NCBI GenBank assembly: GCA_035651755.1 | Contig: DASRFA010000056.1 | Coordinates: 417,846-481,845 of the forward strand | Length of the DNA stretch: 64,000 nucleotides | DNA from: Candidatus Binatia bacterium | GTDB taxonomy: Bacteria; Desulfobacterota; Binatia; UBA12015 | Reading direction: 5' to 3' | Shown: positions 7,901 through 37,936 of the stretch, piece by piece | How positions within the stretch are numbered: the stretch's first letter is position 1 | Layout: every line of letters begins with the position of its first letter | Notes under the pieces: model-generated | The model's database searches: none | What the model was told of the DNA's origin: nothing | The model's input: only the letters and a program-made list of their open reading frames with translations | Position numbers and translations under genes: made by a program

Positions 7901-7914
7901 CCGGGGGTCCCCCG

Positions 7915-8361: not shown

Positions 8362-8434
8362 CGAACCCAGGTTAGCGCGGCCGCCGCGTCGAACCATGGG
8401 CGTGCGCGCCGGGCTTGGTCGCGGCGACGCAACG

Positions 8435-8611: not shown

Positions 8612-8641
8612 ACTTCCAGGGTCGCCGGAAGGAGAGACGCG

Positions 8642-9391
8642 ATGGATCTCGACGGGCGAGTGTGCGTGATCACGGGCGGCGCGTCGGGCATCGGCGCGGC
8701 CGGCGCGCGGCGATTCGCGGAGGCGGGCGCGCGCGTCGTCGTCGCCGACGTCGACGCCGAGCATGCGCGCTCGGTCGCGAGCGAGGTCGGCGGGACGGCG
8801 TTCGCCGTCGACGTGGCGGACGAGGCGGCGGTCGACGCGATGGTCGCGGACGTCGTCGCGCGCCACGGTCGGCTCGACGTGCTGTGGGCGAACGCCGGCA
8901 TCGCGGGCGTTCGCGCGCCGTGCGCCGAGCAGCCGACCGACGCGTGGGAGCGCGTCCTGCGCGTCAACCTGACGGGCGTCTTCCAGTGCTTCCGCGCGGC
9001 GCTCCGCCCGATGCTCGAAGCCGGGCGCGGGGCGTTGCTCGCGACGGCGTCGGTCGCGGGCCTGCGCGCGAGCGCCGGCAGCCCGGCCTACCACGCCGCG
9101 AAGGCGGGCGTCGTGATCCTGGTCCAGCACGTGGCGATGGCGTACGGCCCGCGCGGCATCCGCTGCAACGCCCTCTGCCCGGGCTTGACGGACACGCCCA
9201 TCCTGGATCCGTTCGCCGCGAGCCTTCCCGGCGGTCGCCAGGCGCTCTTCGATCGGATGCTGAAGGTGATTCCATCGCGCCGCGCCGGTCGGCCGAGCGA
9301 CATCGCGGACGCGGCGCTCTTCCTCGCGAGCGACGCGGCCTCCTACGTGAACGGCGTCGCGCTGCGCGTCGACGGCGGTCTCGGCGTGTAG
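8642..9391 (+). CDS. SDR family NAD(P)-dependent oxidoreductase
   Basis: The cofactor motif TGGASGIGAA, NAG, the catalytic YHAAK (YxxxK) and PG motifs are present. Length is 249 aa. Confidence 0.85.
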   Translation: MDLDGRVCVITGGASGIGAAGARRFAEAGARVVVADVDAEHARSVASEVGGTAFAVDVADEAAVDAMVADVVARHGRLDVLWANAGIAGVRAPCAEQPTDAWERVLRVNLTGVFQCFRAALRPMLEAGRGALLATASVAGLRASAGSPAYHAAKAGVVILVQHVAMAYGPRGIRCNALCPGLTDTPILDPFAASLPGGRQALFDRMLKVIPSRRAGRPSDIADAALFLASDAASYVNGVALRVDGGLGV

Positions 9392-9543
9392 AGCGCCGCT
9401 CGCGTTGCGGCGCGCGAACGCTGGCTCATCACGAACGAGGGCGGCGGCGGTCCTCGGACCGCCGCCGCCCCCGACGGAACGAATCCGGCGCGTCCGCCGG
9501 GCCGGTGGAAACGGCCCGGCGGCGCGGCGGAATCGACACGGGC

Positions 9544-10056
9544 TCACCCGTTGTCGGAGTGCCCGATCGTACGGCGAACGCTCAGGATCACGGTGAGCTG
9601 GCGGGCGCTCATGAACTGCTGCCCGCCGAGTCCGCCCCATTCCATCTGGATGGTGTGATCGCCCGCGGTCAGGAAGGCGGCGAAGTTCGCGGCCTGGCTG
9701 GTCGCGCCGCCGTGGACGCCCCAGAACGCCTGGACGATTCCCGGAGACGTCGGGAAGCCGTCGACGAGGGCGGCCACGTATTGCGCGTCCGCGGAATTCA
9801 TCTCGCCGGTGAAGAAGATCTGGACGTCCGCGATGAAGCCGCGCGGAATCGTCACCGGGATGATCATGTCGGGGATCCCGACGAACCCCGTGCTGAAGGA
9901 AGCGGTCGTCGTGATCGGATTGTTCGCTGCCACCGACGTCATGCGCACCTCGCCCTTCGGCGTGAAGGCCGGACCGAGCTGGATCGCGGCGGAAGCGAGC
10001 CCGCTCTGCGTCAACATCGAAACGACGGTGAGCGCGACGGCAAAACTCTTCCTCAT
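9544..10056 (-). CDS. secreted hypothetical protein (signal peptide, Cys-free)
   Basis: The signal peptide MRKSFAVALTVVSMLTQSGLASA is followed by non-arginine-biased composition. No family was recognised. Confidence 0.5.
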   Translation of the reverse strand: MRKSFAVALTVVSMLTQSGLASAAIQLGPAFTPKGEVRMTSVAANNPITTTASFSTGFVGIPDMIIPVTIPRGFIADVQIFFTGEMNSADAQYVAALVDGFPTSPGIVQAFWGVHGGATSQAANFAAFLTAGDHTIQMEWGGLGGQQFMSARQLTVILSVRRTIGHSDNG

Positions 10057-14082: not shown

Positions 14083-16674
14083 GTGGCCGAAAAATTTGCC
14101 ACGCCCGAGCGCGTCCAGCGCCCGGTGCGGCTGGCGGCGGTCGCGATCGGGCTCTTCTGCGTCGTCGTCGGCACGCTGGCGACGCTGTCGAGCCTCGCCT
14201 GGATCGGGCGGACGTTTCCCGGCTTCTTCGTCGTCGAGGATCGCCTCGTGCCGGCGATCGGCCTCCCGCAGTGGGCGGCGACGGAGGTGCCGGCGCTCTA
14301 CCTGAGCCAGGTGGTCGCGGTCGACGGGACGCCGGTCTCGGACGAGCCCGAGATCTACGCCCGCGCCGCGCCGACCGAGCCCGGAACGCCGCTCGTCTAC
14401 ACGCTCCGCCGTCACGGCGAGGAGCGCACGGTCGCGATCCCGACCGAGCGCTTCACCGGCCGGGATTGGGTGCTGCTCTTCGGCAGCTACCTCGTGAACG
14501 GCGCGATCTTCCTCGCGTCGGGGCTGCTCGCGTGGGCGCTCCGGCCGAGATCCGTGCTGAGCAATGCGTTCCTCGCGTTCGGCGGCTGCTGCTCGATCTT
14601 CCTCTTCACCGCGATGGATCTCTACGGACCGGCGATGTTCCTCCACCTCTACCTGCTCGCGAACGCGCTGCTGCCGGCGACGGCGCTCCAGCTCGCCCTG
14701 GTCTTCCCGGAACCGCACCCCTTCGCGCGCTGGCGCTTCGCCGGCTACGCGCCCGGCATCGTCGTGTTCGCGCTCTACGAGGCCTTCCTCCGCCGGCCGG
14801 ACGTGTCGAGCGCGGTCTTCGTGTACAACACGATCGCGCTCGGGCTGGTGGGTGCGTTCTTCGGTGGGCGCCTGCTGCGGGGCTGGTGGCGAAGCGGCTC
14901 CGCGCTCGTGCGGCAGCGCGCGCGCCTCATCACCCTCGGAACGCTCGTCGGCCTGACGCTTCCCGGCGTCATCCTGATCGTCACCTCGCTCGTCAGCGGC
15001 CGGCTCGCCATGAACGCGAGCCTGTACGCGTTCTTCCTGTTCCCGCTCACGCTCGCGTACGCGATCGTCAAGCACGACCTGTTCGAGATCGACGCGATGG
15101 TGAAGCGCGGGGCGACGTACCTCGTGCTGACCGGCGCCGTCGGCGGCGCGTACGTGGTGCTGCTGCTGGTCTTCAACCTCATCCTCCGCTGGGGCGCCGT
15201 CACGAACTCGCCGGCGTTTCCGATCCTGTTCACGATCGCCGTCCTGATCGTGTTCGACCCGCTTCGCGTCCGCCTCCAGGCGCTCGTCGATCGGGTCTTC
15301 TTCCGCACCCGCTACGACGGCGCGCAGGCGCTGGCGGAGGTCGGCGCCCGCCTCGCGGGCGCTCTCCGGCGCGACGAGATCGTGCTCCTCGTCAAGGACG
15401 CCGTCGAGCAGGCGATCCCGAACTCGGGGACGCGCCTCTTCCTGCGCAGCGACGACGGGTCCGCGCTGACGGATACCGAGGCTCGCGGGACGCTCGACGA
15501 GCCCGCGCTGCTGGCCGCGCTCGAGGCGGGCAGGCTGCCGACGACGTTCGATCCGCCGGAGCTCTACCCGTCGCGCGACGACGCGGACGCGGCGCGCGAG
15601 GCGCTGCTCGCGCGCGGCGCCGAGATCGCGGTGCCGCTCTCGCAGGGCGGCTCGCTCGCCGGCGCGCTCGTCGTCGGCCCGAAGCGCTCCGGGCTCTTCT
15701 ACACCGGCGGCGACGCGGAGTTCCTGCGCGCGCTCGCGCACTCCGCCGCGATCGCCCTCCAGAACGCCGCCTCGTACGAGCAGCTCGTCGCGCTGAACGC
15801 GACGCTCGAGACGCGCGTCGCGGAGCGGACCGAGGAGCTCGCGACGTCGAACGCGGAGCTCACGCGATCGCACGCCGAGCTCGAGCGGGCGTACGGCGAG
15901 CTGCAGAGCGCCGAGGTGCAGCTCGTGCAGTCGGAGAAGATGGCGTCGCTCGGCCGGCTCGCGGCGGGCGTCGCGCACGAGATCAACAACCCGGTGAGCT
16001 TCATCGCGTCGAACGTCGAGCCTCTTCAGCACTGCCTCGCGCGCCTCGCGTCCATCGTGCCCGACTCGGAGCGCGAGCCGCTCGAGGACGCGACGGAGAT
16101 CGTCTCGATCATCGGGCGCGGCGCCGAGCGGACGGCCCGCATCGTCGCCGACCTGCGCTCGTTCTCGCGCCTCGGCGAAGCCCAGCACAAGGAGGCCGAC
16201 CTGAAGGAGGCGCTCGACGTCACCGTGCGCCTCCTCGAGCCGCGGTGGCGCGATCGCATCCAGATCCACCGCGACTACGCCGGCCTGCCCCGGATCACCT
16301 GCGACGTCGGCCAGGTGAACCAGGCGCTGATGAACATCCTCGCGAACGCCTGCGACGCGATTCGAGGCCGCGGAAACATCTGGATCACGGGCCGGGAAGT
16401 CGGCAACGACGTCGAGATCGAGATCCGGGACGACGGCTGCGGCATCCCGCCCGACGTGCTGCAGCGCGTTTTCGATCCGTTCTTCACGACGAAGGACGTC
16501 GGGCACGGGACCGGCCTCGGCCTCTCGATCGTGCACGGGATCGCGCGCGCGCACGGCGGCCGCGTCACGGTCACGAGCGAGCCCGGCCGCGGAACGTCGT
16601 TCGTCCTCGTGCTCCCGGCGCGCCCGAGCACGGAGGCGGGAGCGCCGGCCGCCGCGTCGGCGCGTGCGGGCTGA
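14083..16674 (+). CDS. sensor histidine kinase with extracytoplasmic domain, 7TM region, GAF-like linker, HisKA and HATPase_c
   Basis: Seven hydrophobic helices span about residues 130-400. The H-box is AAGVAHEINNPVSF. N, G1 (DDGCGIP) and G2 (GTGLGLSI) boxes are present. Confidence 0.85.
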   Translation: MAEKFATPERVQRPVRLAAVAIGLFCVVVGTLATLSSLAWIGRTFPGFFVVEDRLVPAIGLPQWAATEVPALYLSQVVAVDGTPVSDEPEIYARAAPTEPGTPLVYTLRRHGEERTVAIPTERFTGRDWVLLFGSYLVNGAIFLASGLLAWALRPRSVLSNAFLAFGGCCSIFLFTAMDLYGPAMFLHLYLLANALLPATALQLALVFPEPHPFARWRFAGYAPGIVVFALYEAFLRRPDVSSAVFVYNTIALGLVGAFFGGRLLRGWWRSGSALVRQRARLITLGTLVGLTLPGVILIVTSLVSGRLAMNASLYAFFLFPLTLAYAIVKHDLFEIDAMVKRGATYLVLTGAVGGAYVVLLLVFNLILRWGAVTNSPAFPILFTIAVLIVFDPLRVRLQALVDRVFFRTRYDGAQALAEVGARLAGALRRDEIVLLVKDAVEQAIPNSGTRLFLRSDDGSALTDTEARGTLDEPALLAALEAGRLPTTFDPPELYPSRDDADAAREALLARGAEIAVPLSQGGSLAGALVVGPKRSGLFYTGGDAEFLRALAHSAAIALQNAASYEQLVALNATLETRVAERTEELATSNAELTRSHAELERAYGELQSAEVQLVQSEKMASLGRLAAGVAHEINNPVSFIASNVEPLQHCLARLASIVPDSEREPLEDATEIVSIIGRGAERTARIVADLRSFSRLGEAQHKEADLKEALDVTVRLLEPRWRDRIQIHRDYAGLPRITCDVGQVNQALMNILANACDAIRGRGNIWITGREVGNDVEIEIRDDGCGIPPDVLQRVFDPFFTTKDVGHGTGLGLSIVHGIARAHGGRVTVTSEPGRGTSFVLVLPARPSTEAGAPAAASARAG

Positions 16675-16768
16675 GCCGGCCGGCCGACCGCGCCTCTCTT
16701 GCGAGCGCGGTCCGGGCATCTCATCGTTGCGCTGGAACTCGGCCGGCCCGAAGGGCAATCTCCCGGAA

Positions 16769-18268
16769 ATGCCCGAGATCGACTACCGCGCCTACCCGGT
16801 CCTCGTCGTGGACGACGAGCCGGACATCCTGGCGTCGTTCCGCCTGGCCTACAAGCGCGACTTCACGCTCCTCTGCGCGGAGAGCGGCGCGGAAGGGCTC
16901 GAGCTGCTGCGGAAGACGGAGGTCGCGGTCGCGGTCGCCGACCAGCGGATGCCCGAGATGCCGGGCGTCGAGTTCCTGCGACAGAGCCAGGAGATCCGTC
17001 CGCAGGCGGTCCGGATCATCTTGACGGGCTACGCCGACATCGAGGTCCTGATCGACGCCGTCAACTCCAGCCGGATCTACCGCTACGTGACCAAGCCCTG
17101 GGACCACCAGGAGATGCGCATCACGCTCCGGCGCGCGATCGAGACCTACCACCTCGAGTGCGAGAACGCGCGCCTCCTGAAGGAGCTCCAGGCGGCGAAC
17201 GAGCGCCTCGGCGCGGAGAACGTCTACCTCCGCAAGCGCGAGGAGGAGGACGCCGGCATCGACGGGATCGTCGGCACGAGCGCGGCGATGCGCGAGGTGC
17301 AGCGGCTCATGGAGCGCGTCGGCCCGTCGCCCTCGACCGTGCTGCTGCTGGGCGAGACCGGCACCGGGAAGGAGCTCCTCGCGCGCGCGATCCATCGCCT
17401 GAGCCCGCGCCGCGATCGCATGTTCGTCGCGGTCAACTGCGCGGCGCTCTCGGAGAACCTTCTCGAGAGCGAGCTCTTCGGCCACCGCCGCGGCTCGTTC
17501 ACGGGCGCGCTCGCGGACAAGAAAGGCCTCTTCGAGGTCGCGCACGAGGGAACGATCTTCCTCGACGAGGTCGGCGAGACGACGCCGGCGCTCCAGGCGA
17601 AGCTGCTGCGCGTCCTGCAGGAGGGCGAGATCCTGCCGGTCGGCGAGACCAAGCCGAAATCGATCGACGTGCGCGTCGTCGCCGCCACGAACCGGAAGCT
17701 CGACGAGGAGGTCGAAGCGGGCCGCTTCCGGCGCGACCTCTACTACCGGCTCCGCGTCTTTCCGATCCGCGTCCCGCCGCTCCGCGAGCGGCGCGACGAC
17801 GTGCCGTCGCTCGCGCAGCACTTCCTCGCGAAGTACGCGGGCCGGATCGGGAAGCGCGTCGGCGGCTTCACGGACGAGGCGGTCGCGCTGCTGCGGGCCT
17901 ACTCGTACCCGGGGAACGTCCGCGAGCTCGAGAACGAGATCGAGCGCGCGGTCCTGCTCGCCGACGCGGGCGCGCCGATCACGGCCGCGGAGCTCTCGGA
18001 GGAGATCGCGCTCGAGGCGGAGGGCGCCGCGAGCGACGAGCTGCGTGCGGGCGGCGGCGTCGCGGGCGATGCGGGCAGCGTCGCCGGCGCCGCCGCCGGC
18101 TCGGCGGCGGCGCCGGTCGACCTCCGCGACCGGAAGGATGCCTTCGAGCGCGAGCAGATCACCGCCGCGCTCGGGCGGAACGCCGGAAGCAAGACGCGCG
18201 CGGCGCGGGAGCTCGGGATCACCTATCGCGGGCTGCTCAAGAAGATGCAGCGGCTCGGAATGACCTGA
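16769..18268 (+). CDS. sigma-54-dependent response regulator (NtrC/Fis family: REC, AAA+ and HTH)
   Basis: The receiver domain shows [11 protein letters not shown]...ADQRMPEM. The AAA+ core shows [21 protein letters not shown] and ESELFGH. A C-terminal Fis-type HTH is present. The ATG at 16769 follows an artefactual leader. Confidence 0.9.
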
Positions 18269-18377: not shown

Positions 18378-19265
18378 ATGCGGCGGGCGGTACTGGTTCT
18401 GGTCGCGGCGATCGTCGGATGGTCGCTCGTCGACCTCGTGGTGACGCTGATCGCGACGCCGCCCGTCATCGTCGTGGGCGCCGGCGCTCCCGCCCTCGTC
18501 TTCGCACTCGCGATCGCGCGCGTCGACCCCGACCGCGCGCCGGCGGCACTGCTCGCGGCGGCGTTCGTGTGGGGCGCGTCGGTCGCGCCCCTGGTCTCGC
18601 TCGCGCTGAACGATTCCGTGCGCGCCTGGCTCGGGGCGACGATCGGCGCCCCGCGGACCGCCGTGCTCGCGCCGGCCGTCGTCGGCCCGCTGATCGAGGA
18701 GTCGGCGAAGGGCGCCGCGCTCGCGATGCTGGTGCTCGCGCGGCCGCGCGCGATCGCGGGGCCGATCGACGGCCTGGTCTACGGAGCGATGGTCGGCATC
18801 GGGTTCACGATGGCCGAGAACCTGTCCTACCTGGCGATCGCCGCGGTTCAGGGTGGGCAAGGCGGCCTCGAGCGCGCCGTCTACACGCGCGCCGTGCTCG
18901 GCGGCTTCAACCATGCAGCGTTCACGGCGACCACCGGCGCGGCGGTCGGAGCCGCCCTCCGGGGACGCGCGGGCGTGGCGCGCGCCGGCGCGATCGTCGC
19001 CGGCTTCACGGCCGCGGTCGTGCAGCACGCAATCTGGAACGTGGTGGGGTCGCGCGCGATCACGGCGCTGCTCTGCGACCCCGAGATCCCCGGTGGGCCC
19101 TGCCGCGCTTCGCCCGCAGCGCGCCGCCTTTACGTCGACATTCCGCTCGTCCTGGTGGCCTGTGTGGGGCCCGGCATCGCGGTCCTCGCGGTCGTCGCAG
19201 GGGCGGCGCGACACCGGGCGAGACGGCGTACGATCGCCGCGGGCGCGGGCGCGCGCGACGGCTGA
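18378..19265 (+). CDS. PrsW-family intramembrane metalloprotease
   Basis: Multiple TM helices, EESAKG, FTMAENLSY and the HAAFTATTG motifs are characteristic of PrsW/PF13367. Confidence 0.7.
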   Translation: MRRAVLVLVAAIVGWSLVDLVVTLIATPPVIVVGAGAPALVFALAIARVDPDRAPAALLAAAFVWGASVAPLVSLALNDSVRAWLGATIGAPRTAVLAPAVVGPLIEESAKGAALAMLVLARPRAIAGPIDGLVYGAMVGIGFTMAENLSYLAIAAVQGGQGGLERAVYTRAVLGGFNHAAFTATTGAAVGAALRGRAGVARAGAIVAGFTAAVVQHAIWNVVGSRAITALLCDPEIPGGPCRASPAARRLYVDIPLVLVACVGPGIAVLAVVAGAARHRARRRTIAAGAGARDG

Positions 19266-22315: not shown

Positions 22316-22450
22316 GCCCTGCCGAGATCATTCGAGTCGAAATCGGGAGTCAAGGCCGCCACGTCGGCGCCGCCATCCGGACCGTCGTCCGACCCCGGTA
22401 CGTCGTCGATCCTGCCGGGGATCGGGACGGACGCTCGGCGATCCTCCGAG

Positions 22451-22524
22451 TGGTCGCACCGTGACTCGAACACGGGACCTCTTGCATGTGAGGCAAGCGC
22501 TCTAACCAGCTGAGCTATGCGACC
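22451..22524 (-). tRNA. tRNA-Val (anticodon CAC)
   Basis: The reverse complement folds as a cloverleaf. The acceptor stem GGTCGCA/TGCGACC pairs 7/7. The D-stem is GCTC/GAGC, the anticodon stem CTTGC/GCAAG with loop CT-CAC-AT, the T-arm CCGTG-TTCGAGT-CACGG, and the discriminator is A. CCA is not encoded. Confidence 0.8.
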
Positions 22525-22597: not shown

Positions 22598-23113
22598 TCA
22601 GCGCGTCTCCTGCCCGCGCAGGAACGCCGCGAGCTTCCGGACGTCCGGCAGCGCCTGCTCCATCCCCTCGCTGGCGCCGATCGTGCCCATGCACGTGTCG
22701 GTGTGGAGCCCGTGCGCCCCCTGCCGCGCGAAGACGAGGTACTTGGTACCCGGCTTGAACGCGACGCCGCACGCGCTGGCATCGGCGTGCGTCACGACCG
22801 TCACGTGGCCGGTCGCGCGCCCCTTCAGCGATTCCGTCACGTCGAAGCCGAAGGCGACGGCGTTCGGGTGGGCCGGGTCCTCGGCGTCGTGGCCGTGGAC
22901 GCCGGCGTGCGGGATCACGTCCTCGTGCGCGGGCGTCGGGCCCTCGACCACCGTTCCGACGAACACGTCGCTCGCGCGGTCGAACTCGGAAGCGCGCGAT
23001 CCGGACGTGCAGCTGCAGGCGACGGCGTCGGGCGCGAAGCTGCCCATCGCCCACGCGAACGAGGCGAGGAGGAAGAAGGGGCGGGAAGCGGTGACGACGG
23101 CTCGGAATTTCAT
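22598..23113 (-). CDS. secreted TIMP/NTR-like protein (paralog 1), predicted mature N-terminus Cys-Ser-Cys
   Basis: The signal peptide ends AVA|CSC. The mature region carries TIMP N-domain motifs: CSC..S..F..A.DVFVGTV, SLKGRA, ACGV.F..G.KYLVFAR and HTDTCMG. Confidence 0.65.
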   Translation of the reverse strand: MKFRAVVTASRPFFLLASFAWAMGSFAPDAVACSCTSGSRASEFDRASDVFVGTVVEGPTPAHEDVIPHAGVHGHDAEDPAHPNAVAFGFDVTESLKGRATGHVTVVTHADASACGVAFKPGTKYLVFARQGAHGLHTDTCMGTIGASEGMEQALPDVRKLAAFLRGQETR

Positions 23114-23616
23114 GGCGACTTGGATCCCTCCACCGGCTGCGCGGCCGCCGACGACAGGCGCCGCACCTCGGCGACGGCCGCGTCGAGCTTCTCGCCCGAT
23201 ACGTTGCCCATGCAGAGGTCGGTTTGCAGCGCCGCCTTCGCGGTGTCGCGGCGCGCGAACACCAGGTAGGTCTGGCCCTTCTCGAACGTGACGCCGCAGG
23301 CCGCCGCGCCGCTCGGCGTCGCGACCTCGAGCTTCTTCGCGGCGCCGCCCTTGAACGATTCGCCGACCTCGAGCACCCAGCGCACCTGGCGGGTGCTCAC
23401 GGCGGTCGTGCCGCCGTCCGGCGGCGCCTGGTCGCCGGGCGGGGTCACCGGGCCCTCGGACGCGGTCGCGACGAAGACGTCGGTCGCGCGCTCGTACTGG
23501 GAAGCGAGCGACTCGGGCACGCAGCTGCAGGCGGCCGACTCCCGCGCGAGCAGGGCTGCGGAGGCGACGACGGCGCCGAGCGCGGCCGCGCGGACGGAGC
23601 GGAAGAGCGGGGTCAT
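23110..23616 (-). CDS. secreted TIMP/NTR-like protein (paralog 2), predicted mature N-terminus Cys-Ser-Cys
   Basis: The internal ATG at 23614-23616 gives MTPLFRSVRAAALGAVVASAALLARESAA|CSCVPES. The mature region aligns motif-by-motif with vertebrate N-TIMP: CSCVP..F..ATDVFVA, WVLEVGESFKG, TPSGAAACGVTFEKGQTYLVFAR and QTDLCMG. Confidence 0.7.
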   Translation of the reverse strand: MTPLFRSVRAAALGAVVASAALLARESAACSCVPESLASQYERATDVFVATASEGPVTPPGDQAPPDGGTTAVSTRQVRWVLEVGESFKGGAAKKLEVATPSGAAACGVTFEKGQTYLVFARRDTAKAALQTDLCMGNVSGEKLDAAVAEVRRLSSAAAQPVEGSKSP

Positions 23617-23730
23617 GCGCGAAATCCTATCACCGGCCGGCGGCGCCGTCGCGTGCCATGCCGGGCGCGATGCCGTACAACCGACGTCGGGCCGGCCCGT
23701 CGCCGATCGCGGTCGCAGCCCGCCGACGCC

Positions 23731-24906
23731 ATGGATTTCGCCTACACGGCCGAGCAGGAGCGCTTCCGCGCGGAGGTGCGGACCTTCCTCGAGCGCGCCC
23801 TGCCCGCCGGGTGGGGCACCGCGTCGTATCGCCCGCCGCGCGAGGCCGCGGAGATCGTGGCATTCGATCGCGCCTTCCAGAAGAAGCTCTACGACGCCGG
23901 CTACAGCGGCCTCTCGTGGCCGAAGGAGTACGGCGGGCGGGGCGCGAGCCTCGTCGAGCAGATCATCTTCATGGAGGAGACCGCGCGCGCGAAGGCGCCG
24001 CTCCCGGTGAACCTCGCAGGTTTGACGATGGCCGGGCCCGTTCTCATCAAGCACGGGACCGAGAAGCAGAAGGCACGCTTCCTCCGGCCGATCCTCACCT
24101 CCGACGAGATCTGGTGCCAGGGCTTCTCGGAGCCCGGCGCCGGCTCCGACCTCGCGTCGCTCCGAACCAGCGCCGTCCTCGACGGCGACGACTTCCTCGT
24201 GAACGGCCAGAAGGTCTGGACGAGCTGGGCGCACCAGGCCGACTGGTGCATGCTCCTCGTCCGCACCGACCCGCAGGCGCCGAAGCACAAGGGCATCACC
24301 TTCCTCGTCGTCGACATGCGGTCGCCCGGGATCACCGTCCGGCCGCTCCGCCAGATCAGCGGCGACGACGACTTCAACGAGCTGTTCTTCGACAATCTGA
24401 GAGTGCCGCGCGAAAACGTGATCGGCGAGGTGAACCGCGGCTGGGAGATCGCGATCACCTGCCTCATGCACGAGCGCGCGACGCTCACGTTCCAGCGCCA
24501 GCTCCAGTCGCGCACGGCATTCGCCGACATGCTGCCACACCTGCGCGAGCGCGCGGTCGGCGACGCGGCGCTGCGCCAGAAGGTCGCACAGCTCCATCTC
24601 GAGGGCGAGATCATCCGCTTGACGGCATACCGCGGCTTGACGCAGCAGCTGCGCGGCCGGCCGCCCGGGCCCGAGGGATCGATCGAGAAGCTCTTCTGGA
24701 GCGAGATGTACCAGCGCCAGCTCGAGGCGATGCTGGAAACGCTCGGCCCGTACGCGCAGCTCATGCCCGACTCGCCGCGCGCCGTCGACGACGGGCGCTG
24801 GCCGCACCTCTTCCTCTACTCGCGCGGCCGGACGATCGCCGCGGGAACTTCCGAGGTGCAGCGGAACATCATCGCCGACCGCGTGCTCGGCCTGCCGCGG
24901 TCGTAG
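23731..24906 (+). CDS. acyl-CoA dehydrogenase family protein
   Basis: The ACAD N, middle beta-barrel (IWCQGFSEPGAGSDLA) and C-terminal domains are present. The ATG at 23731 follows an arginine-rich leader in the track ORF. Confidence 0.85.
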   Translation: MDFAYTAEQERFRAEVRTFLERALPAGWGTASYRPPREAAEIVAFDRAFQKKLYDAGYSGLSWPKEYGGRGASLVEQIIFMEETARAKAPLPVNLAGLTMAGPVLIKHGTEKQKARFLRPILTSDEIWCQGFSEPGAGSDLASLRTSAVLDGDDFLVNGQKVWTSWAHQADWCMLLVRTDPQAPKHKGITFLVVDMRSPGITVRPLRQISGDDDFNELFFDNLRVPRENVIGEVNRGWEIAITCLMHERATLTFQRQLQSRTAFADMLPHLRERAVGDAALRQKVAQLHLEGEIIRLTAYRGLTQQLRGRPPGPEGSIEKLFWSEMYQRQLEAMLETLGPYAQLMPDSPRAVDDGRWPHLFLYSRGRTIAAGTSEVQRNIIADRVLGLPRS

Positions 24907-24929
24907 ACGGGCACGCTCCCGAAGGCGAC

Positions 24930-26516
24930 GTGCGCATCCCCGATCTCACGCTCGCGACCCTGCAGGGAGAGAAGCTGCGCCTTCGCCCCGAGCCGCCAGG
25001 CGTACGCCTCCTCCTCGTCTACAAGCGCGACTGCGAGACCTGCGGTCTCGTCCTGCCCGTGCTCGAGCGCCTCTCGCGACCGCTGCACGCGCGCGGCCTC
25101 GAGACGATCGGCGTCTCGCAGAGCGACGCCGACGCGACGCTCGACGCGATCAACGAGCACGGCCTCTGCTTTCCGCAGGCGCTCGATTCGGACCTCGCGC
25201 TGTCGTTCGCGCTCGAGATGGAGGTCGTCCCCGCGGTCGTGCTCGTGGACGCGGAAGGCGAGGTGCTCGACCGCACCGACGCGCTCGACCTCGACGCCCT
25301 GACGCGAGTGCTGCACGCGGCCGGCGACCGCGCCGGCGTCGAGCGCGCCGAGATCGACCGCGCGCTCGCTCCATTCCGCCTACCCTCCTTCCGCCCGGGC
25401 TGCGCCTCGCGAACGCTCGACGCCGGCGTGCAGCGCCGGCGCGACCTCGAGCGCGGACGAGGACGCCTCGCGGCGCGGCGCTTCGAGGTCGGCGACGACG
25501 AGGACGAGCACGAGGCGCTCTTCGCGCGCGGCGTGACCGACGGGCTCCCGGTCGTGCCGCCGACCGAGGAGCGCGTGATCCGGATGCTCGCCGGCACGCC
25601 GCGCGACCCGCAGGACGTCGTCGCGCTCGTGCCGCCGAACCTGGCGCCCGCGACGATCGAGAAGATCGCGATCAACGCCGTCATGGCCGGCTGCAAGCCG
25701 GAATACCTGCCGGTCGTGATCGCAGCGGTCGAGGCCGCGTGCACCGACGAGTTCAACATGCACGGCGTCCTCGCGACGACGTACTTCGCCGCGCCGCTCG
25801 TGATCGTGAACGGCCCCATCCGGAAGCGCATCGGCCTCAACTCCGGCATCAACGTGTTCGGCCAGGGCCACCGCGCGAACGCGACGATCGGCCGCGCGCT
25901 GAACCTCGTCGTCCGGAACGTGGGCGGCGGGCGCCCCGGCGAGGTCGATCGCGCCACGCTGGGACAGCCCGGCAAGTTCACGTACTGCATCGCCGAGAAC
26001 GAGGAGGCGAGCCCGTGGCCGCCGCTCCACGTCGAGCGCGGCTTCGCCGCCGAGGACTCGACGGTCACGCTCTTCGCCGCCGAGGCCCCGCGCGCGATCG
26101 TCGACCAGACGAGCCGAACGGCGGCCGGCCTCGTCAAGTCGCTCGGCCTCGCGATGGAGAGCGTCGCGCACCCGCGCGCACACGGCTACGGCGACATCGT
26201 CCTCGTCCTCCCGCCCGAGCACGTCGCGACGATTCGGCGCGACGGCTGGACGAAGGACGACGTGCGCCGGCGCATCCAGGAGGTGACGGCGCGGCCGCTC
26301 GCGGAGCTCTTCGCCGACGAGGAGTGCCGGGAAGGTCTCCCGCGCGCGCTCGCAGGCAATCGCGATCCGGCGACCGTGACGCTTCCGAAGTTCCGGAGCT
26401 CGGAGATGATCCACATCGTCGTCGCGGGCGGCCCGGCCGGGAAGTTCTCGGCCGTGATCGGCGGCTGGGTGCAGGGGCCGATGGGCTCGACGATGGTGAC
26501 GCGGAAGATCGGCTGA
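24930..26516 (+). CDS. thioredoxin-fold (CxxC, TlpA/redoxin-like) N-domain fused to ~380-aa domain of unknown function
   Basis: A GTG at 24930 is preceded by GAAGGCGA. The redoxin motif is YKRDCETCGLVLP. The C-terminal domain (AINAVMAGCKPEY..NSGINVFGQGHRAN..) was not recognised. It lies 24 nt after the ACAD stop on the same strand. Confidence 0.55.
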   Translation: MRIPDLTLATLQGEKLRLRPEPPGVRLLLVYKRDCETCGLVLPVLERLSRPLHARGLETIGVSQSDADATLDAINEHGLCFPQALDSDLALSFALEMEVVPAVVLVDAEGEVLDRTDALDLDALTRVLHAAGDRAGVERAEIDRALAPFRLPSFRPGCASRTLDAGVQRRRDLERGRGRLAARRFEVGDDEDEHEALFARGVTDGLPVVPPTEERVIRMLAGTPRDPQDVVALVPPNLAPATIEKIAINAVMAGCKPEYLPVVIAAVEAACTDEFNMHGVLATTYFAAPLVIVNGPIRKRIGLNSGINVFGQGHRANATIGRALNLVVRNVGGGRPGEVDRATLGQPGKFTYCIAENEEASPWPPLHVERGFAAEDSTVTLFAAEAPRAIVDQTSRTAAGLVKSLGLAMESVAHPRAHGYGDIVLVLPPEHVATIRRDGWTKDDVRRRIQEVTARPLAELFADEECREGLPRALAGNRDPATVTLPKFRSSEMIHIVVAGGPAGKFSAVIGGWVQGPMGSTMVTRKIG

Positions 26517-29907: not shown

Positions 29908-30219
29908 GCGGGAATTTCACGAGAGGGATCGCTCCCCGCGCCGCGCACGGGGGATTTGCCCCAGCGCGACGCGCGCACCGTTTCTCACGATCGCGAATCC
30001 TTTTCTCGACGGCGTCCTAGCGCCGGTGAGCCGATCGCGCAACGACCTGCAGTGCGCTGCGGCGCCGCGGCCCGAGCGTGCAAGCCATTGCGCGTTCGCG
30101 CACGCCGCGCCCGTCGCCGCGATCGCTCCCGAGCGTGGCATCGCGATTGCGACCTTGCCCCATCGGCGCCGCGCGCGCCGCCTCTCGGCGGCGTGCCGCG
30201 GCCCACCAAGGGGCACACC

Positions 30220-33200
30220 ATGGACCTCCAGCTGCGTCCAGTCGTCGCCGCGACCCTGGTTCTCCTCGGACTCGGTACCGCGCCTGCGGGCGCGGCCGGT
30301 GGGCCGACCCTGGAGATCTCGACCCCGGAGGGCCGGACGACCCGGGCAATCGTCGAGGGAAGCGCCGTCGTCGTGAGCACCGGCGTCGACCCGCGGCGGG
30401 CGACCACCGTGCTTCCGCCGGCGGCGAGCGACGGCTCACCCGAGCTCGTGATCGTCGAGCTGCGCGGCGCGCCGCTCGTCCGACGGGTGCAGGCGCGAGC
30501 GACCCGCGCTCCGCAGTCGGCGCACGCGGCGATCGCGGCGGAGCACCGGAGGGTCGTGGACGAGATCGCCCGGCTCGACGGCGGCGCCGCCCGCGCGCGC
30601 GGGCTCGGCCCGGGACCGGTCCGCCGCGAGTACACGCTGCTGTTCAACGGCATCGCGGCGACGCTCGACGCCGCCGCGCAGGCCGCGCTCGCCGCTCACC
30701 CCGACGTGAGGGCGATCCGGCCCGATCGCGAGGTCAAGGCGGTCCTCGACACGAGCGTCCCGTTCGTGCGCGCGCCGGCGTTCTGGTCGCGCCACGGCGG
30801 CTACCGCGGTAGCGGACGGGTCATCGCCGTCGTCGACACCGGCATCGACTACACCCACGCCGACCTCGGCGCGTGCACCGCGGTCGGCGCCGGATGCAAG
30901 GTCGCGGGCGGATACGACTTCCAGAACGGCGACGACGATCCGCTCGACGACTACGGCCACGGGACGCACGTCGCCGCGATCGCGGCCGGCAACGGGTCGC
31001 TCCTCGGCGTCGCGCCCGACGCGACGCTGCTCGCGTACAAGGTGCTGGACGCGTACGGGAACGGCCTCGAGTCGACCGTGATCGCCGGGATCGAAGGGGC
31101 CGTCGACCCGAACGGCGACCTCGACACGAGCGATCACGTCGACGTCATCAACCTGAGCCTCGGCGGACCCGGCGGCCCGGACGATCCCGGCGCGCAGGCC
31201 GTCGACGGAGCGACCGCGGCCGGCGTGCTCGTCGTCGCGGCGGCCGGGAACAGCGGCGGCTACTACACGGTCGGCTCTCCCGGCGTGGCGCGAACGGCGC
31301 TCACCGTCGGCGCGATCAGCGAGGCGGGAGCCGCGGCGGCCTATTTCACGTCCGGCGGACCGACGGCAGACACGTTCGATCTGAAGCCCGAGATCTCGGC
31401 TCCGGGCGTGAACATCTGCGCCGCTCGCGCCGCCGGAACGGAGCTCGGCGCGACGTGCATCGACGCAACCCACGTCGTCCTCGACGGAACTTCGATGGCG
31501 ACGCCTCACGTGGCCGGCGCCGCGGCGCTCTTGCGCGGGGTCTTTCCCGCTCTGTCGCCCGCCGACGTCAAGTCGCTGCTCGCGCAGAACGGCCGTCCCT
31601 CGAACGACTCCGCGCTGCAGGTCGGAGCGTCCATCCTCGACGTGTCCGCCTCGGGCTCGGCCGAAACGGTCGTCGACCCGCAGACCCTGAGCTTCGGGCT
31701 CGACGACCTCCTGGTGCCGACGTGGGCCCCGACGCGGACCCTCACCGTGCGGAACGTGGGCGCGACGGCGCGCTCCTACACGATCGGCGCGACCGGACAC
31801 GCCTTCGGCCTTCCGGCCGGCGCGACCGTGACCTTCGATCCCGCGTCCTTCTCCCTCTCCCCCGGCCAGTCGCGGACGATCCAGGTCGCGCTCACCGTCG
31901 ACAACGCCGCGGTGCCGAACCAGACGACCGCGCCCAGTGCCTACGAGGCGATGATCGAGCTCCGGTCCACCGGCGAGACGCAGCGCGTGCCGATGATCTT
32001 CATCAAGTCGCCGCTCCTGCGCATCCAGACCGATCAGGTGGCGACGCTCGTCTACGCGCACGATCGCTCGAGCATCTACAACGCCTACGCCGTGGTGCCG
32101 GCCGGAACCACGGTGGACATGCTCGTCCCGGCGGGCACGTACGACGTCATCATGATGTTCAGCGCGAGCATTGCGGCGTACGTGGTGCACGAGGGGATCG
32201 TCGTGACCGATCGTCATGACGAGATCATGAGCTCCACCGAGGCGAGCCACACCGTGAGCCTCGCGGGCAAGAGCGAGGTCGGAAGCCCGCTCACCGAGTC
32301 GATTCGCGCGATCACGATCTACCACCGCGCCTCGGGCCTGGGCCTCGCGACGCTGAGCTCGGGCGCGGCGGTTCCGTTCGCGATCCCGATGAGCTCGATG
32401 AGCTCCGCGTACGACGTCGATCTCGCGCTCATGGCGCAGCCCGGCGACCGGACGTACCTCGTGAACGAAGGCCTGGCCGGCGTGTCGGAAAGCGCCGCTC
32501 TCGCGAACACGCCGTCCCAGCTCACGCACGGAGCGTTCCGCTACTACGCGAACCCGGGCGAGACGCCTTCGGGGACGATGGAGTTCCTCTCGGTGATGGT
32601 CGGCTCGACGTTCGGATTCGGGCTCGGCCCACCGCCCGTGAGCCCCGTCGACCGCGACTTCTGGGTGGCGCCGGCTCCGCGGCCGGGGGCCCGCATCTTC
32701 GTGCAGCCGGCGGTGCTGCTCACCGGGAACCCGGACACCTCCCACAACTGCCCGTGGTACCGCGGCGCGACCGCGAGCGGCGTGATCCAGGCCTTCAACG
32801 CGCTCGATCCGGACGATCCCGTCTACGAGACGTCGACCGGCGAGCTGCCGCTCGACCTCGGGCCGGCGTCGCTGTTCGTCAAGCTCGTCAGCACGAACGC
32901 GTGGCTGCAGGCGCGCAACGTGGCCGCGGCGTGGACGTGGACGTTCCATTCCCCGGGAGGCGACGGTCCCGAGGCCCCCGGCGGCACGATCGGCTACCGC
33001 CTGCTCGCGAACGACCACGTCGTCGCCTCCGGCGTGATGCCGCAGTCGGGCTTCGGCGGGCCGTTCCTGCCGTTCCTCTTCCCGCTCGCCGCACGTCCGT
33101 ACGTGCTCGAAACCGATCCGCTGCCCTACTGGATCGGGGGCGTGCGGGCGACGGCGCGGATCGCGGCCTCGTTCGACACTCGGAGCTACCCCGCGGACGT

Positions 33201-34893
33201 CGACCCGCCGTACCTCCGGCGTGTCGAGGTACGGAGCGCCGGAGCGCTCGCCGAGGTCGTCCCGGTCGGGATGGATCCGACGGTGCTCATCGAGGCGCAC
33301 GACGACGTCGACGCGACGGTCGCGCTCTCGCTCCAGGCGACCGCGGCCGGCGTCAAGACGCTCGTGCCGGTCGTGCCGATCGGACCCGGGGTCTACGAGG
33401 CGACGCTCACCGGCGCCTGCGACGACGGCGGTGCGGTCGACCTCCTCGTGAGCGCCGCCGACTCGTCGGGCAACCGGCTCGACGAGTGGCTCACGCCGGC
33501 ATTCGTCTGCCGCAGCGCAACCTGCGGCAACTGGATCATCGAGCCGGGCGAGGCGTGCGACGACGGCAACCAGGTCTCCGGAGACGGCTGCAACGCCGTC
33601 TGCTCGAGCACCGAGCGGTGCGGCGACGGCGTCCTCGACGCCGGCGAGGCATGCGACGACGGCAACACGACCGGCGGCGATTGCTGCTCCGCCACCTGCC
33701 GGCCCGAGCGCGCCGGGTCGGCGTGCGACGACGGCCTCTTCTGCGACGGCGCGGACGCTTGCGACTCCCTCGGCGCGTGCGCGCGCCACGGCGCGCCGCC
33801 GTGCGCGAGCGGGCCCGAGTGCGCGACCTCCTGCGACGAGTCGATCGACGCGTGCGGGCCCGCGCCCGCCGGCGAGTCCTGCAGCAGCGACGGCAACGGC
33901 TGCACGGCGGACGCCTGCGACGGCGTTGGGGCGTGCGCGCACGAGGCCCTCGACACCGGCCCGTGCGACGATGGCGTCTTCTGCAACGGCGCGGACGCCT
34001 GCGCGGCCGGCGCCTGCACGGTGCACGCTGGCGACCCGTGCGACGGCGGCGGCGAATGCGCGGACACGTGCCAGGAGGCGTCGGACGACTGCTTCTCGTA
34101 CGGCGGCACCGCGTGCACCGACGACGGCGAGATCTGCACGATCGACATCTGCAACGGGGCCGGCCTGTGCATCCACCCCGCCGCCCATGCGGGGCTCGTG
34201 TGCCGGTCCTCGTCCGATGCGTGCGACGTCGCCGAGGAGTGCGACGGCGTCCTCGCGACCTGCCCGCCCGACACGGGCCTCGCGGACAGCGACCGCGACG
34301 GGCTGTGCGACGGGCTCGACCCCTGCACGAACGTCGCGGGAGCGCGCGACTTCACGAGCCCGCCGGTCGCGCGCCTCAGGCTCGGGCGCATCTTCGCCGA
34401 CGCGACACCGGGAAACGACCTCCTCACCGTGTCCGGCACGTTCAATCTGCCGACCGGTACGTCGTTCTTCCGGCTCTTCCCGCTCGGCGGAATCGCACGC
34501 GTCGTGCTCGTGGACGGGCTGGGCGCGCCCGAGGCGGACGTCGTGCTGCCGAGTGGCTCCTATTCGAACGCGACCAAGCGCGGCTGGTCACAGTCGCGGA
34601 ACGCCAAGTCGTGGACCTATCGCGATCGCACCGGGACGCCGCCCGGCGGCATCCAGAAGCTCGTCGTGCGGACCGTCGGGCGCTCCGCGGACGTGCCGGG
34701 CGGACCGGCGAAGCTCACGCTGTCCGGCCGGAATGGGACCTACCCGTTCACCGACGCGAACTTGCCGGCGAACGTCGTGGTCACGCTCGGCAACCAGGCG
34801 GCGGCCGCGGCGGGGCGGTGCGCGGAGTCGGCGTTCCCCGCCGGCACTTGTGGCTTCAACGGCGCGCGGACGCAGGCGACGTGCATCCGTTGA
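30220..34893 (+). CDS. secreted subtilisin-like serine protease (S8) with large C-terminal extension containing Myxococcus cysteine-rich (DUF4215-like) repeats
   Basis: The signal peptide is MDLQLRPVVAATLVLLGLGTAPAGAA. The S8 triad is VAVVDTGIDYTHADL, HGTHVAAIAAG and GTSMATPHVAGAAALL. The C-terminal repeats are CGDG..D.GE.CDDGN...GD.C.A.C. Confidence 0.85.
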   Translation: MDLQLRPVVAATLVLLGLGTAPAGAAGGPTLEISTPEGRTTRAIVEGSAVVVSTGVDPRRATTVLPPAASDGSPELVIVELRGAPLVRRVQARATRAPQSAHAAIAAEHRRVVDEIARLDGGAARARGLGPGPVRREYTLLFNGIAATLDAAAQAALAAHPDVRAIRPDREVKAVLDTSVPFVRAPAFWSRHGGYRGSGRVIAVVDTGIDYTHADLGACTAVGAGCKVAGGYDFQNGDDDPLDDYGHGTHVAAIAAGNGSLLGVAPDATLLAYKVLDAYGNGLESTVIAGIEGAVDPNGDLDTSDHVDVINLSLGGPGGPDDPGAQAVDGATAAGVLVVAAAGNSGGYYTVGSPGVARTALTVGAISEAGAAAAYFTSGGPTADTFDLKPEISAPGVNICAARAAGTELGATCIDATHVVLDGTSMATPHVAGAAALLRGVFPALSPADVKSLLAQNGRPSNDSALQVGASILDVSASGSAETVVDPQTLSFGLDDLLVPTWAPTRTLTVRNVGATARSYTIGATGHAFGLPAGATVTFDPASFSLSPGQSRTIQVALTVDNAAVPNQTTAPSAYEAMIELRSTGETQRVPMIFIKSPLLRIQTDQVATLVYAHDRSSIYNAYAVVPAGTTVDMLVPAGTYDVIMMFSASIAAYVVHEGIVVTDRHDEIMSSTEASHTVSLAGKSEVGSPLTESIRAITIYHRASGLGLATLSSGAAVPFAIPMSSMSSAYDVDLALMAQPGDRTYLVNEGLAGVSESAALANTPSQLTHGAFRYYANPGETPSGTMEFLSVMVGSTFGFGLGPPPVSPVDRDFWVAPAPRPGARIFVQPAVLLTGNPDTSHNCPWYRGATASGVIQAFNALDPDDPVYETSTGELPLDLGPASLFVKLVSTNAWLQARNVAAAWTWTFHSPGGDGPEAPGGTIGYRLLANDHVVASGVMPQSGFGGPFLPFLFPLAARPYVLETDPLPYWIGGVRATARIAASFDTRSYPADVDPPYLRRVEVRSAGALAEVVPVGMDPTVLIEAHDDVDATVALSLQATAAGVKTLVPVVPIGPGVYEATLTGACDDGGAVDLLVSAADSSGNRLDEWLTPAFVCRSATCGNWIIEPGEACDDGNQVSGDGCNAVCSSTERCGDGVLDAGEACDDGNTTGGDCCSATCRPERAGSACDDGLFCDGADACDSLGACARHGAPPCASGPECATSCDESIDACGPAPAGESCSSDGNGCTADACDGVGACAHEALDTGPCDDGVFCNGADACAAGACTVHAGDPCDGGGECADTCQEASDDCFSYGGTACTDDGEICTIDICNGAGLCIHPAAHAGLVCRSSSDACDVAEECDGVLATCPPDTGLADSDRDGLCDGLDPCTNVAGARDFTSPPVARLRLGRIFADATPGNDLLTVSGTFNLPTGTSFFRLFPLGGIARVVLVDGLGAPEADVVLPSGSYSNATKRGWSQSRNAKSWTYRDRTGTPPGGIQKLVVRTVGRSADVPGGPAKLTLSGRNGTYPFTDANLPANVVVTLGNQAAAAAGRCAESAFPAGTCGFNGARTQATCIR

Positions 34894-36871: not shown

Positions 36872-37873
36872 ATGCGTGCAGCGTTCGCGCTGGTGCTCGC
36901 CGTCTCCGTCGCGGCGGCATCACCGGCGGCCGCGTCGGCGCTCGGCCAGTCGTGCCAGGCTCGCAAGCTGGCGGCGGCCGGGCGGGCGGTTCGCGACGTT
37001 CTCCGCTGCTCGGTGGCGTCGCTCTCCCCGCCCGAGTGCTACCAGGGCGCTGTCCGTCGGCTCCGGAAGACGTTCCGCCGGAACGAGAACGCGTACGCCT
37101 GCGAGACGACCGGCGATGCCGCCACGCTCCGGGAACGGGTCGACACCTACGCTCTGACGGAGCGAACGTCCCTCGGTCCCCACACGGAGTGCTACCGCGC
37201 CCGGCTGCTCGCCATCGGAGACCGGTTCTTCCGTGCGGCGCGGGCAAGGGCCGTCTACGCGGTCGACTCGGACGACGCGCGCCTCGCGGCCCGCATCGCT
37301 CGCGCCGACGAGGCCTACTTCGCGGCCTTCGCCGCCGCCGAGGGACTGCCCGGGTGCACGGCCTGGGTCACGGCGGCCTTCCAGAGGGAGTTCGTCGACG
37401 TCTGGGTCGACGATTTTCGGCGACGGCTCTTCCCGGCGTGCGGCGACGACACCCGCACGGCGACCGAGGAGTGCGACGGGCGCGAGAGCGACGCCTGTCC
37501 GGGCAAATGCACGACCTCGTGCACGTGTCCCGTCTGCGGGAACGGCGTCAAGGAGCCGGGCGAGCAGTGCGACGGAGCCGCCGACGAATTCTGCCCCGGC
37601 GCATGCGCCAGCGACTGCACCTGCCCCGGGCCGGTGTGCGGCGACGGGGTCGTGTCGGGCACCGAGCAGTGCGACCTCGGCGAGGCCGAGTACTGCGCGG
37701 AGGGCGCGACGGTCTGCGCCGGCGTGAGCGGACCGCTCGCCTGCCGGTGCTGCATCCCCGCCGGCACTTCGTGGCTCCGCCCCCCGATCCCGATCACGCT
37801 TCCGTGCTGCGACACGGGCTTCGACTGCCAGGTCGTCGGCCCCAACGAGTGCTTCTGCCCGGCGCCGCACTGA
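36872..37873 (+). CDS. secreted cysteine-rich protein with Myxococcus cysteine-rich (DUF4215-like) repeats
   Basis: The signal peptide is MRAAFALVLAVSVAAASPAAASA. The C-terminal repeats are CGNGVKEPGEQCDGAADEFCPGAC and CGDGVVSGTEQCDLGEAEYC. The RBS is GAGGAGCG. Confidence 0.7.
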   Translation: MRAAFALVLAVSVAAASPAAASALGQSCQARKLAAAGRAVRDVLRCSVASLSPPECYQGAVRRLRKTFRRNENAYACETTGDAATLRERVDTYALTERTSLGPHTECYRARLLAIGDRFFRAARARAVYAVDSDDARLAARIARADEAYFAAFAAAEGLPGCTAWVTAAFQREFVDVWVDDFRRRLFPACGDDTRTATEECDGRESDACPGKCTTSCTCPVCGNGVKEPGEQCDGAADEFCPGACASDCTCPGPVCGDGVVSGTEQCDLGEAEYCAEGATVCAGVSGPLACRCCIPAGTSWLRPPIPITLPCCDTGFDCQVVGPNECFCPAPH

Positions 37874-37936
37874 GCGATCGCGCGCAGCGCGGAGCTTCCT
37901 CGCCGCGTCCCCGCGCGCGGCCAGCCGACCGCGACA

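Follow-up and report, generated by a model that had tools for sequence, protein, structure and literature searches.

The stretch of Candidatus Binatia bacterium DNA analyzed here (64,000 nucleotides of contig DASRFA010000056.1, referred to in its entirety as the window) carries two adjacent minus-strand genes, gene A at 22598-23113 and gene B at 23110-23616, for small proteins that resemble the N-terminal domain found in TIMPs (tissue inhibitors of metalloproteinases). Gene A encodes a precursor of 171 amino acids and its paralog gene B a precursor of 168 amino acids. Both open reading frames (ORFs), their strand, and their lengths are as described in the initial annotation of the locus, and the motifs quoted there (AVA/CSC, SAA/CSC, ATDVFVA, WVLEVGESFKG, AACGVTFEKGQTYLVFAR, and QTDLCMG, with the slash marking the predicted cleavage site) were all found in the two proteins. 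Because the GC content of the window is 72%, spurious ORFs are plentiful in it. Gene A and gene B have a GC content at third codon positions (GC3) of 0.94 and 0.95, respectively, matching the codon-position pattern of the genome's real genes, while the alternative ORFs that overlap them have GC3 values of 0.56-0.82 and do not follow this pattern. Gene A and gene B are real coding genes. The stop codon of gene B and the start codon of gene A share an ATGA overlap (23110-23113, minus strand), and a GGAGGG Shine-Dalgarno sequence precedes gene A within the 3′ end of gene B, which argues that the genes form one operon with translational coupling. The 114-nt intergenic region at 23617-23730, which separates gene B from a divergent acyl-CoA dehydrogenase gene (23731-24906, plus strand), presumably holds the promoter; a promoter and terminator scan of the gene-pair region returned nothing, including no sigma-70-like match in 23617-23730. 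The two proteins share 39% identity over 138 amino acids (E 7e-28) and are old paralogs.

Both precursors are predicted to be exported by the Sec pathway and cut by signal peptidase I. The gene A signal peptide comprises residues 1-32 (23018-23113, minus strand) and ends in ...APDAVA, with the predicted cut after Ala32, while the gene B signal peptide comprises residues 1-29 (MTPLFRSVRAAALGAVVASAALLARESAA; 23530-23616, minus strand) and shows the n-, h-, and c-region layout, with the predicted cut after Ala29. The junctions identified in silico are thus A-V-A/C-S-C for gene A and S-A-A/C-S-C for gene B, and each mature protein would begin with Cys1-Ser2-Cys3, encoded on the minus strand at 23009-23017 in gene A and at 23521-23529 in gene B, where it aligns to Cys1-Ser2-Cys3 of TIMP-2. 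The initial annotation described the proteins as secreted. What the sequences bear out in silico is Sec export, and the proteins may stay in the periplasm. The predicted mature proteins are 139 amino acids each, or about 14.3 kDa, and contain exactly four cysteines, at positions 1, 3, 83, and 109 in gene A and positions 1, 3, 78, and 106 in gene B. Both end in a C-terminal amphipathic helix and belong to the soluble subgroup of their family. The most variable region in the family is the A-B hairpin loop, which in gene A (residues 58-84; 22862-22942, minus strand) is placed as the long AB loop of TIMP-2, has the histidine-rich sequence PAHEDVIPHAGVHGHDAEDPAHP, and was modeled with low confidence. 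Mature gene A has nine histidines, clustered in this loop, compared with none in mature gene B, and the histidine-rich loop is not kept in A-type orthologs. A different insert, HAAGAHEAGAHEA, is found near the A-B loop position in the relative P0012.

Sequence profiles connect the pair to TIMPs. Gene B matches the Pfam TIMP hidden Markov model (HMM; PF00965) with 23.3 bits against a gathering threshold of 23.1 (E 6.4e-5), and the match begins at profile position 2, which corresponds to Cys1, and spans positions 2-107 of 183. Gene A alone falls below the threshold, with 13.2 bits and E 0.076. The relationship to the TIMP model put forward in the initial annotation therefore holds for gene B, which is just over the gathering threshold, and for 56 of 85 relatives that match PF00965 individually (best E 1.9e-11), but not for gene A by itself. 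A profile that combines gene A, gene B, and five close relatives was aligned to residues 1-101 of TIMP-2 in the PDB (E 0.03, weak alone), and in this alignment the four cysteines fall on TIMP-2 Cys1, Cys3, Cys72, and Cys101, in agreement with the earlier claim that the cysteines for two of the three N-TIMP disulfide pairs are present. Single-sequence PDB searches with the window proteins gave only chance-level matches to 3C proteases, and the proteins match no NCBIfam model. The proposed N-TIMP fold was recovered from the AlphaFold models of both proteins, for which the first Foldseek matches are N-TIMP-1/2/3, the agrin NtA domain, and the PCOLCE NTR domain. With the gene B model the top match is N-TIMP-1 (E 8.6e-6), and with the gene A model (AF2 with an 85-sequence alignment, pLDDT 85.2) the 17 best PDB matches are all TIMP-1/2/3, with TM-scores of up to 0.76. 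Both proteins are modeled as an OB-type five-stranded barrel with flanking helices, which is the NTR fold. The pair thus combines an HMM match, the fold, the Cys1-Ser-Cys3 N-terminus, and two disulfide positions of the TIMP N-domain, and gene A and gene B are new members of PF00965/NTR, within a large bacterial branch that is automatically labeled in databases and undescribed in the literature searched.

TIMP-like proteins of this kind also occur outside the window. When 1.84 billion cluster representatives were searched exhaustively with a profile, 9,397 proteins reached E<=1e-3, of which 1,046 reached E<=1e-10. A word-based homolog search, with 6 and 11 matches, was too insensitive, a related-locus search with a narrow alignment gave one genome locus only, and phage and plasmid collections contained no relatives. 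Named members come from Actinosynnema, filamentous cyanobacteria, Paenibacillus, Sandaracinaceae, and Elusimicrobiota, and the taxonomic breadth of the family rests on these few. Several members carry the automatic UniRef name "Tissue inhibitor of metalloproteinase", and at NCBI they are listed as hypothetical. The initial annotation regarded TIMP-like inhibitors as essentially an animal family and bacterial homologs with a correctly placed N-terminal cysteine as not well described; with thousands of clusters and the TIMP names in UniRef they are not rare, but the literature is indeed nearly silent about them.

The predicted cleavage junction, A-x-A/C-S/T-C, is nearly the same throughout the family. 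Among 153 family proteins, consisting of the matches listed and close relatives, a signal peptide (median 28 residues) is followed by C-x-C in 146, so that this feature of the window pair is no chance occurrence. In these 146 proteins, position -1 is alanine in 144 and position -3 is alanine in 117, position -4 is often proline, and position -2 is often leucine, tryptophan, tyrosine, or phenylalanine. Past the cut, position +2 is serine in 126 or threonine in 10 (136 in total) and position +5 is often proline. A leucine, valine, or isoleucine at position -3, as needed for a lipobox, occurs in only 4 of the 146. Judged from these residues, the family junction is a textbook signal peptidase I site, and the A-x-A motif together with the bulky -2 residue throughout the family and only 4/146 lipobox-like junctions supports the predicted cleavage by signal peptidase I rather than signal peptidase II. 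With this, the conditions that the initial annotation named as refuting its call and that were checked in silico (no match to the TIMP model, a different fold, and cleavage elsewhere or lipidation) have all turned out in favor of the call. The near-invariant junction and the Ser/Thr at position 2 argue that the free N-terminus is the functional element. In the 85-sequence alignment (gene B numbering), C30, C32, and C107 in the A-x-C-G motif are invariant, and S31, the K-G turn, and C135 are at least 90% conserved. Two rare members have six cysteines, at positions 1, 3, 13, 74, 100, and 131 in P0057, which is nearly exactly the N-TIMP pattern, and at positions 1, 3, 10, 77, 103, and 123 in P0038, making these proteins candidates for having all three N-TIMP disulfides. 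Several metagenomic members have an extra cysteine a few residues past C-S/T-C, such as C-S-C-M-S-S-G-P-P-C in L085.

Other members of the family differ from the window pair in what follows the TIMP-like domain. About half have a linker, a C-terminal transmembrane helix, and an arginine-rich stop, forming a membrane anchor; in many of them the linker is rich in proline, threonine, and serine and the stop reads RR(R). The tails of P0045, P0102, P0123, P0124, P0128, and P0154 consist of G-G-C-A-S-C, a hydrophobic stretch, and RRRR, and resemble MYXO-CTERM sorting signals. Some members are fused to SLH, CarboxypepD_reg (as repeats in some loci), PrcB_C, or TonB_C domains. The TIMP match directly follows the signal peptide in seven of nine multidomain members scanned; of the remaining two, one has no TIMP match and the other has a second, internal match. 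The 301-amino-acid protein P0011 has two TIMP-like domains, the second of which comes after its own signal-peptide-like segment, ...AALVWRPQIAWA/CTC. P0011 has the look of two tandem genes joined through a frameshift or a miscall, and it suggests that such duplications have occurred outside Binatia as well.

On the gene A side of the pair, the window contains a GAF histidine kinase and a sigma-54 response regulator (14083-18268), a PrsW-family intramembrane metalloprotease just downstream of them (18378-19265, plus strand), genes for a GST and a PLD-type enzyme, and a tRNA-Val(CAC) gene (22450-22524, minus strand; ARAGORN and Rfam) located 73 nt downstream of gene A. The tRNA is the only feature that an Rfam scan of the gene-pair region detected. 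Beyond the pair, the divergent acyl-CoA dehydrogenase gene is followed by a redoxin-fusion gene (24903-26516, plus strand), which encodes a protein of 537 amino acids with an AhpC/TSA-redoxin domain at its N-terminus and a stretch of about 400 residues without a Pfam match, and by genes for a sulfatase, a beta-lactamase-fold protein, and a subtilase of 1,645 amino acids (29956-34893, plus strand). The subtilase, which has an I9 propeptide, an S8 domain, and Fn3-like/DUF4215 regions, lies 6 kb from the pair and is probably exported.

The initial annotation placed the pair next to an insertion hotspot at tRNA-Val, but two related contigs reveal conserved synteny instead. In L133, the order is an acyl-CoA dehydrogenase fragment, a divergent B-type gene, an A-type gene, and tRNA-Val(CAC), and in L132 it is redoxin, acyl-CoA dehydrogenase, a single TIMP-like gene, tRNA-Val(CAC), and toxin-antitoxin modules, with a counterpart of the window's 537-amino-acid redoxin protein (2054-3640) kept beside the acyl-CoA dehydrogenase. 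Both contigs preserve the divergent orientation of the acyl-CoA dehydrogenase and TIMP-like genes. Past the tRNA, L132 has ParE/RHH and PIN toxin-antitoxin modules (5873-8724), the window has the PLD and GST genes, and L133 has a sigma-54 regulator. Because this DNA differs among the three, the variable side of the tRNA is the far side and not the TIMP-like side. GC content is uniform at 0.70-0.75 across the gene-pair region, and a genomic island at tRNA-Val was rejected on the basis of this flat GC content and the order conserved in L132 and L133. The same conserved arrangement and flat GC content indicate that gene A and gene B belong to the core genome, have been inherited vertically, and lie on the tRNA's conserved side, rather than being inserted cargo. 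In a pairwise identity matrix, gene A groups with the A-type orthologs P0007 (98%), P0010 (49%), and P0013 (46%), while gene B groups with P0002, P0003, and the upstream gene of L133. These separate A-type and B-type groups show that the duplication is older than the lineages concerned and that both copies have been kept. The myxobacterial host assumed earlier was also rejected, with a 100% identical protein annotated from a Candidatus Binatia metagenome-assembled genome, which is the source of the DNA.

We propose, with a probability of about 0.55, that the window pair are periplasmic or secreted TIMP-type inhibitors of zinc metalloproteases. On sequence and models, the proteins appear to be Sec-exported single-domain homologs of the inhibitory N-terminal domain of TIMP, produced from one operon. 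In TIMP complexes with matrix metalloproteinases (MMPs), the catalytic zinc is chelated by the Cys1 α-amine and carbonyl, residue 2 addresses the S1′ pocket, and the unprimed side is lined by residues that precede Cys70; the A-B loop of TIMP-2 also contacts the protease. In the bacterial proteins, cleavage by signal peptidase I after A-x-A would free an N-terminal Cys1-Ser2-Cys3. Cys1 is predicted to form a disulfide with the cysteine of A-x-C-G and Cys3 with the cysteine of L-x-T-x-L-C, corresponding to Cys1-Cys70/72 and Cys3-Cys99/101 of TIMPs, and both bonds would clamp the N-terminal segment onto the OB barrel to form a TIMP-type ridge. The α-amino and carbonyl groups of Cys1 could then chelate the catalytic zinc of a metalloendopeptidase, with Ser2 at the mouth of S1′, resulting in tight-binding inhibition. 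Paralogs A and B, which differ mainly in the A-B loop, may be aimed at different proteases and could shield the cell, either in the periplasm or extracellularly, from its own proteases or from foreign ones. The disulfide pairing, the inhibition, its target, and the location of the pair are all features that we infer.

Animal TIMPs (PF00965, MEROPS I35), and specifically their inhibitory N-terminal domain, are among the known proteins closest to the pair. The proteins share an HMM match that starts from Cys1, the OB/NTR fold, and a cut before Cys1-Ser/Thr2-Cys3. Their cysteine spacing is similar, at 1, 3, 78, and 106 in gene B and 1, 3, 72, and 101 in TIMP-2, and the VF/VI strand, FKG turn, A-x-C-G ridge, and YL(V/I)-A strand are conserved. 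In contrast to animal TIMPs, the window proteins are bacterial, lack the C-terminal domain and the Cys13-Cys124 bond, and have a C-terminal amphipathic helix instead. The nematode single-domain TIMP/netrin proteins (hookworm Ac-TMP and AceES-2; PDB 3nsw) differ in being eukaryotic, while the bacterial proteins keep C-S-C. AceES-2 lacks the N-terminal traits of an inhibitor and is not known to inhibit MMPs.

Partial support for inhibition comes from the gene neighborhoods of relatives, with two cases in which a TIMP-like gene is linked to a gene for a zinc protease. The membrane-anchored protein P0162, which is 36% identical to gene B (E 2e-16), is encoded at L006, 10 nt downstream of the gene for a matrixin-like metzincin that has the motif HELGHWLALED...TMHG, where TMHG is the Met-turn; this metzincin matches the Pfam M10 model with 26.8 bits (gathering threshold 24). 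P0081, 49% identical to P0162, is preceded by the same metzincin, at 71% identity. The two-gene unit of metzincin and TIMP-like protein is found in a high-GC clade at L006 (5017-5991 and 6001-6681), in the same form at L007, and at L135 (3-371 and 412-1107). In these units, the metzincin motif is HELGHW[LF]AL[EA]D...TM[HY]G, with aspartate as the third ligand as in snapalysin, the gap between the genes is 10-40 nt, and the TIMP-like protein is membrane-anchored with a P-C-[LW]-A/C-S-C junction. In L047, an Aspzincin_M35 gene (9233-9892, E 1.9e-18) lies directly upstream of a multidomain TIMP-like gene on the same strand (start near 9740). Aspzincin_M35 proteins are lysine-specific metalloendopeptidase-like, and this is a second, unrelated pairing with a zinc protease.

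Several observations weigh against the proposed inhibitory function. A six-frame HExxH scan of the window found no zinc protease in a coding frame; an HEVVH sequence occurs in an ORF at 37318-38106 that has high GC3 and no Pfam match, and the nearest proteases among ten neighboring genes searched with Pfam are only the PrsW membrane protease and the S8 subtilase. Among 116 metagenomic loci, an HExxH scan and the Pfam assignment of 87 adjacent ORFs on the same strand likewise revealed no enriched peptidase family, which indicates that the metzincin pairing is clade-specific, and the Actinosynnema, Paenibacillus, and cyanobacterial loci have no protease neighbor. In the proteins themselves, the third N-domain disulfide (Cys13-Cys124/126) is absent, each mature protein having only four cysteines, and the C-terminal TIMP domain with its six further cysteines is absent, as the protein ends after one helix; the window proteins are therefore N-TIMP-only proteins. 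A single ORF in L062 (546-2315) encodes three NTR-like repeats, of which the two internal ones have C-P-D-C or C-P-G-C and not C-x-C. These internal repeats have no free N-terminus and are a caveat for a universal N-terminal mechanism. The one bacterial TIMP-like protein with an experimentally studied role also counts against simple inhibition, as described below. Shield inhibitors such as ecotin are expected to be encoded by stand-alone genes, and stand-alone genes fit equally well with a non-inhibitory role.

The strongest competing explanation, which we nevertheless consider unlikely, is that the proteins are NTR-fold modules without inhibitory activity that bind an envelope, matrix, or protein ligand, comparable to the binding of laminin by agrin NtA or to the partners of netrin, sFRP, and complement NTR domains. 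An almost invariant signal peptidase I junction before C-S/T-C argues instead for a function of the N-terminus itself. Pfam also favors TIMP (56/85 relatives) over the NTR model (4/85) or the NtA model (1/85), so that few bacterial relatives match the HMMs of non-inhibitory modules such as agrin NtA, PCOLCE, netrins, sFRPs, and complement C345C. Neither gene A nor gene B matches the NTR HMM (PF01759), and the domain is N-terminal or stand-alone, not C-terminal in a mosaic protein. Eukaryotic NTR modules without inhibitory activity are parts of mosaic proteins, either internal or at the C-terminal end, and are not known to have a free Cys1-x-Cys3 N-terminus, which further disfavors this explanation, as do the metzincin and aspzincin operons in relatives.

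Experimental precedent for a bacterial TIMP-like protein is limited to Listeria monocytogenes Tim, the partner of the metzincin Mtz (Boichis et al. 2021, PMC8235301). Tim is a prophage-associated lipoprotein with an LTAC lipobox, is TIMP-like by Phyre2 structure prediction only, and is cut by Mtz about 50 residues into its sequence, behaving toward this metzincin as a substrate or effector and not as a simple inhibitor; its authors state that they came across no prior account of TIMP-like proteins in bacteria (PMC8235301). By analogy, the window proteins could be effectors or substrates in protease-triggered remodeling of the envelope, in which a metzincin cleaves the protein and the fragment alters the cell wall. 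The two systems are alike in being bacterial and exported with a TIMP-like fold, and the order of metzincin followed by TIMP-like gene in L006 and L135 is that of mtz-tim. However, Tim has no sequence similarity to TIMPs and carries a lipobox, whereas the window proteins have signal peptidase I sites, a detectable TIMP HMM match, and no metzincin or other protease partner adjacent to them, and the absence of relatives from phage and plasmid collections also sets them apart. We consider an Mtz-Tim-like role improbable. A PrsW-like gene is reported near Listeria mtz-tim (PMC8235301), and the window has one as well, which is probably a coincidence.

It is less probable still that the two proteins bind metals or act in thiol redox in the periplasm, with C-x-C serving as free thiols and the histidine-rich loop assisting in gene A. 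C-x-C motifs can bind copper or zinc, the nine histidines of mature gene A are clustered in one loop, and a redoxin-domain gene is a conserved neighbor two genes away. Against this role, all four cysteines align with the two TIMP disulfide pairs, the loop is missing in gene A orthologs and in gene B with its 0 histidines, and the redoxin gene is on a divergent transcript. Exported proteins with paired cysteines are also normally oxidized in the periplasm. Finally, the possibility that the proteins are lipoproteins with an acylated Cys1 and a blocked N-terminus, suggested by the cysteine directly after the signal peptide and by the lipoprotein nature of Listeria Tim (PMC8235301), was rejected as highly implausible because residues -3 to -1 are A-V-A and S-A-A and not L/V/I-[AST]-[GAS], the lipobox [LVI][ASTVI][GAS]C is not present, and the family statistics (Ala at -3 in 117/146, often W, Y, F, or L at -2, lipobox-like in 4/146) argue against it.

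For the TIMP-type inhibition that we favor, the closest bacterial analog in mechanism is the family of serralysin inhibitors Inh/AprI/SmaPI (I38), in which N-terminal residues enter the metzincin active site and contact the zinc (PMC8235301). These are also periplasmic bacterial proteins that work by the same principle, but they are eight-stranded barrels without homology to the window proteins, and their genes are always linked to a serralysin operon. The window proteins gave no Pfam or PDB sequence match to I38, the fold search returned NTR, and no serralysin is encoded in the window.

The literature treats TIMPs as a metazoan family. The evolution papers and reviews consulted do not mention bacteria (PMC4860685, PMC9409782), and bacterial peptidase inhibitors are the subject of a 2022 paper that refers to TIMPs only as four mammalian MMP inhibitors, with no bacterial homolog (PMC9890683). 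In open-access literature and bioRxiv we found no paper on this bacterial family, with Listeria Tim being the closest subject. A broader proposal, which we advance tentatively, is that N-TIMP-type inhibitors are primarily bacterial proteins that serve as periplasmic or surface shields against metalloproteases through the same zinc chelation by the Cys1 α-amine as in animal TIMPs, that animal TIMP/NTR proteins descend from them, and that A and B are specificity variants. This bacterial-origin proposal, which we regard as possible rather than probable, takes the family to comprise some 9,000 clusters or more across Binatota, Actinomycetota, Cyanobacteriota, Bacillota, Myxococcota, and Elusimicrobiota. 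If the bacterial proteins do inhibit zinc peptidases via a free Cys1, the TIMP/NTR fold would have its origin in bacteria, and the family would represent a large new class of endogenous regulators of, or defensive shields against, bacterial metalloproteases. Its members would also offer small single-domain, two-disulfide TIMP scaffolds for engineering. The window pair, two old paralogs that share an operon and diverge chiefly in the A-B loop, provides a clean test case, and a conserved TIMP-type N-terminus in thousands of bacterial proteins would come as a surprise to the TIMP and metzincin field.

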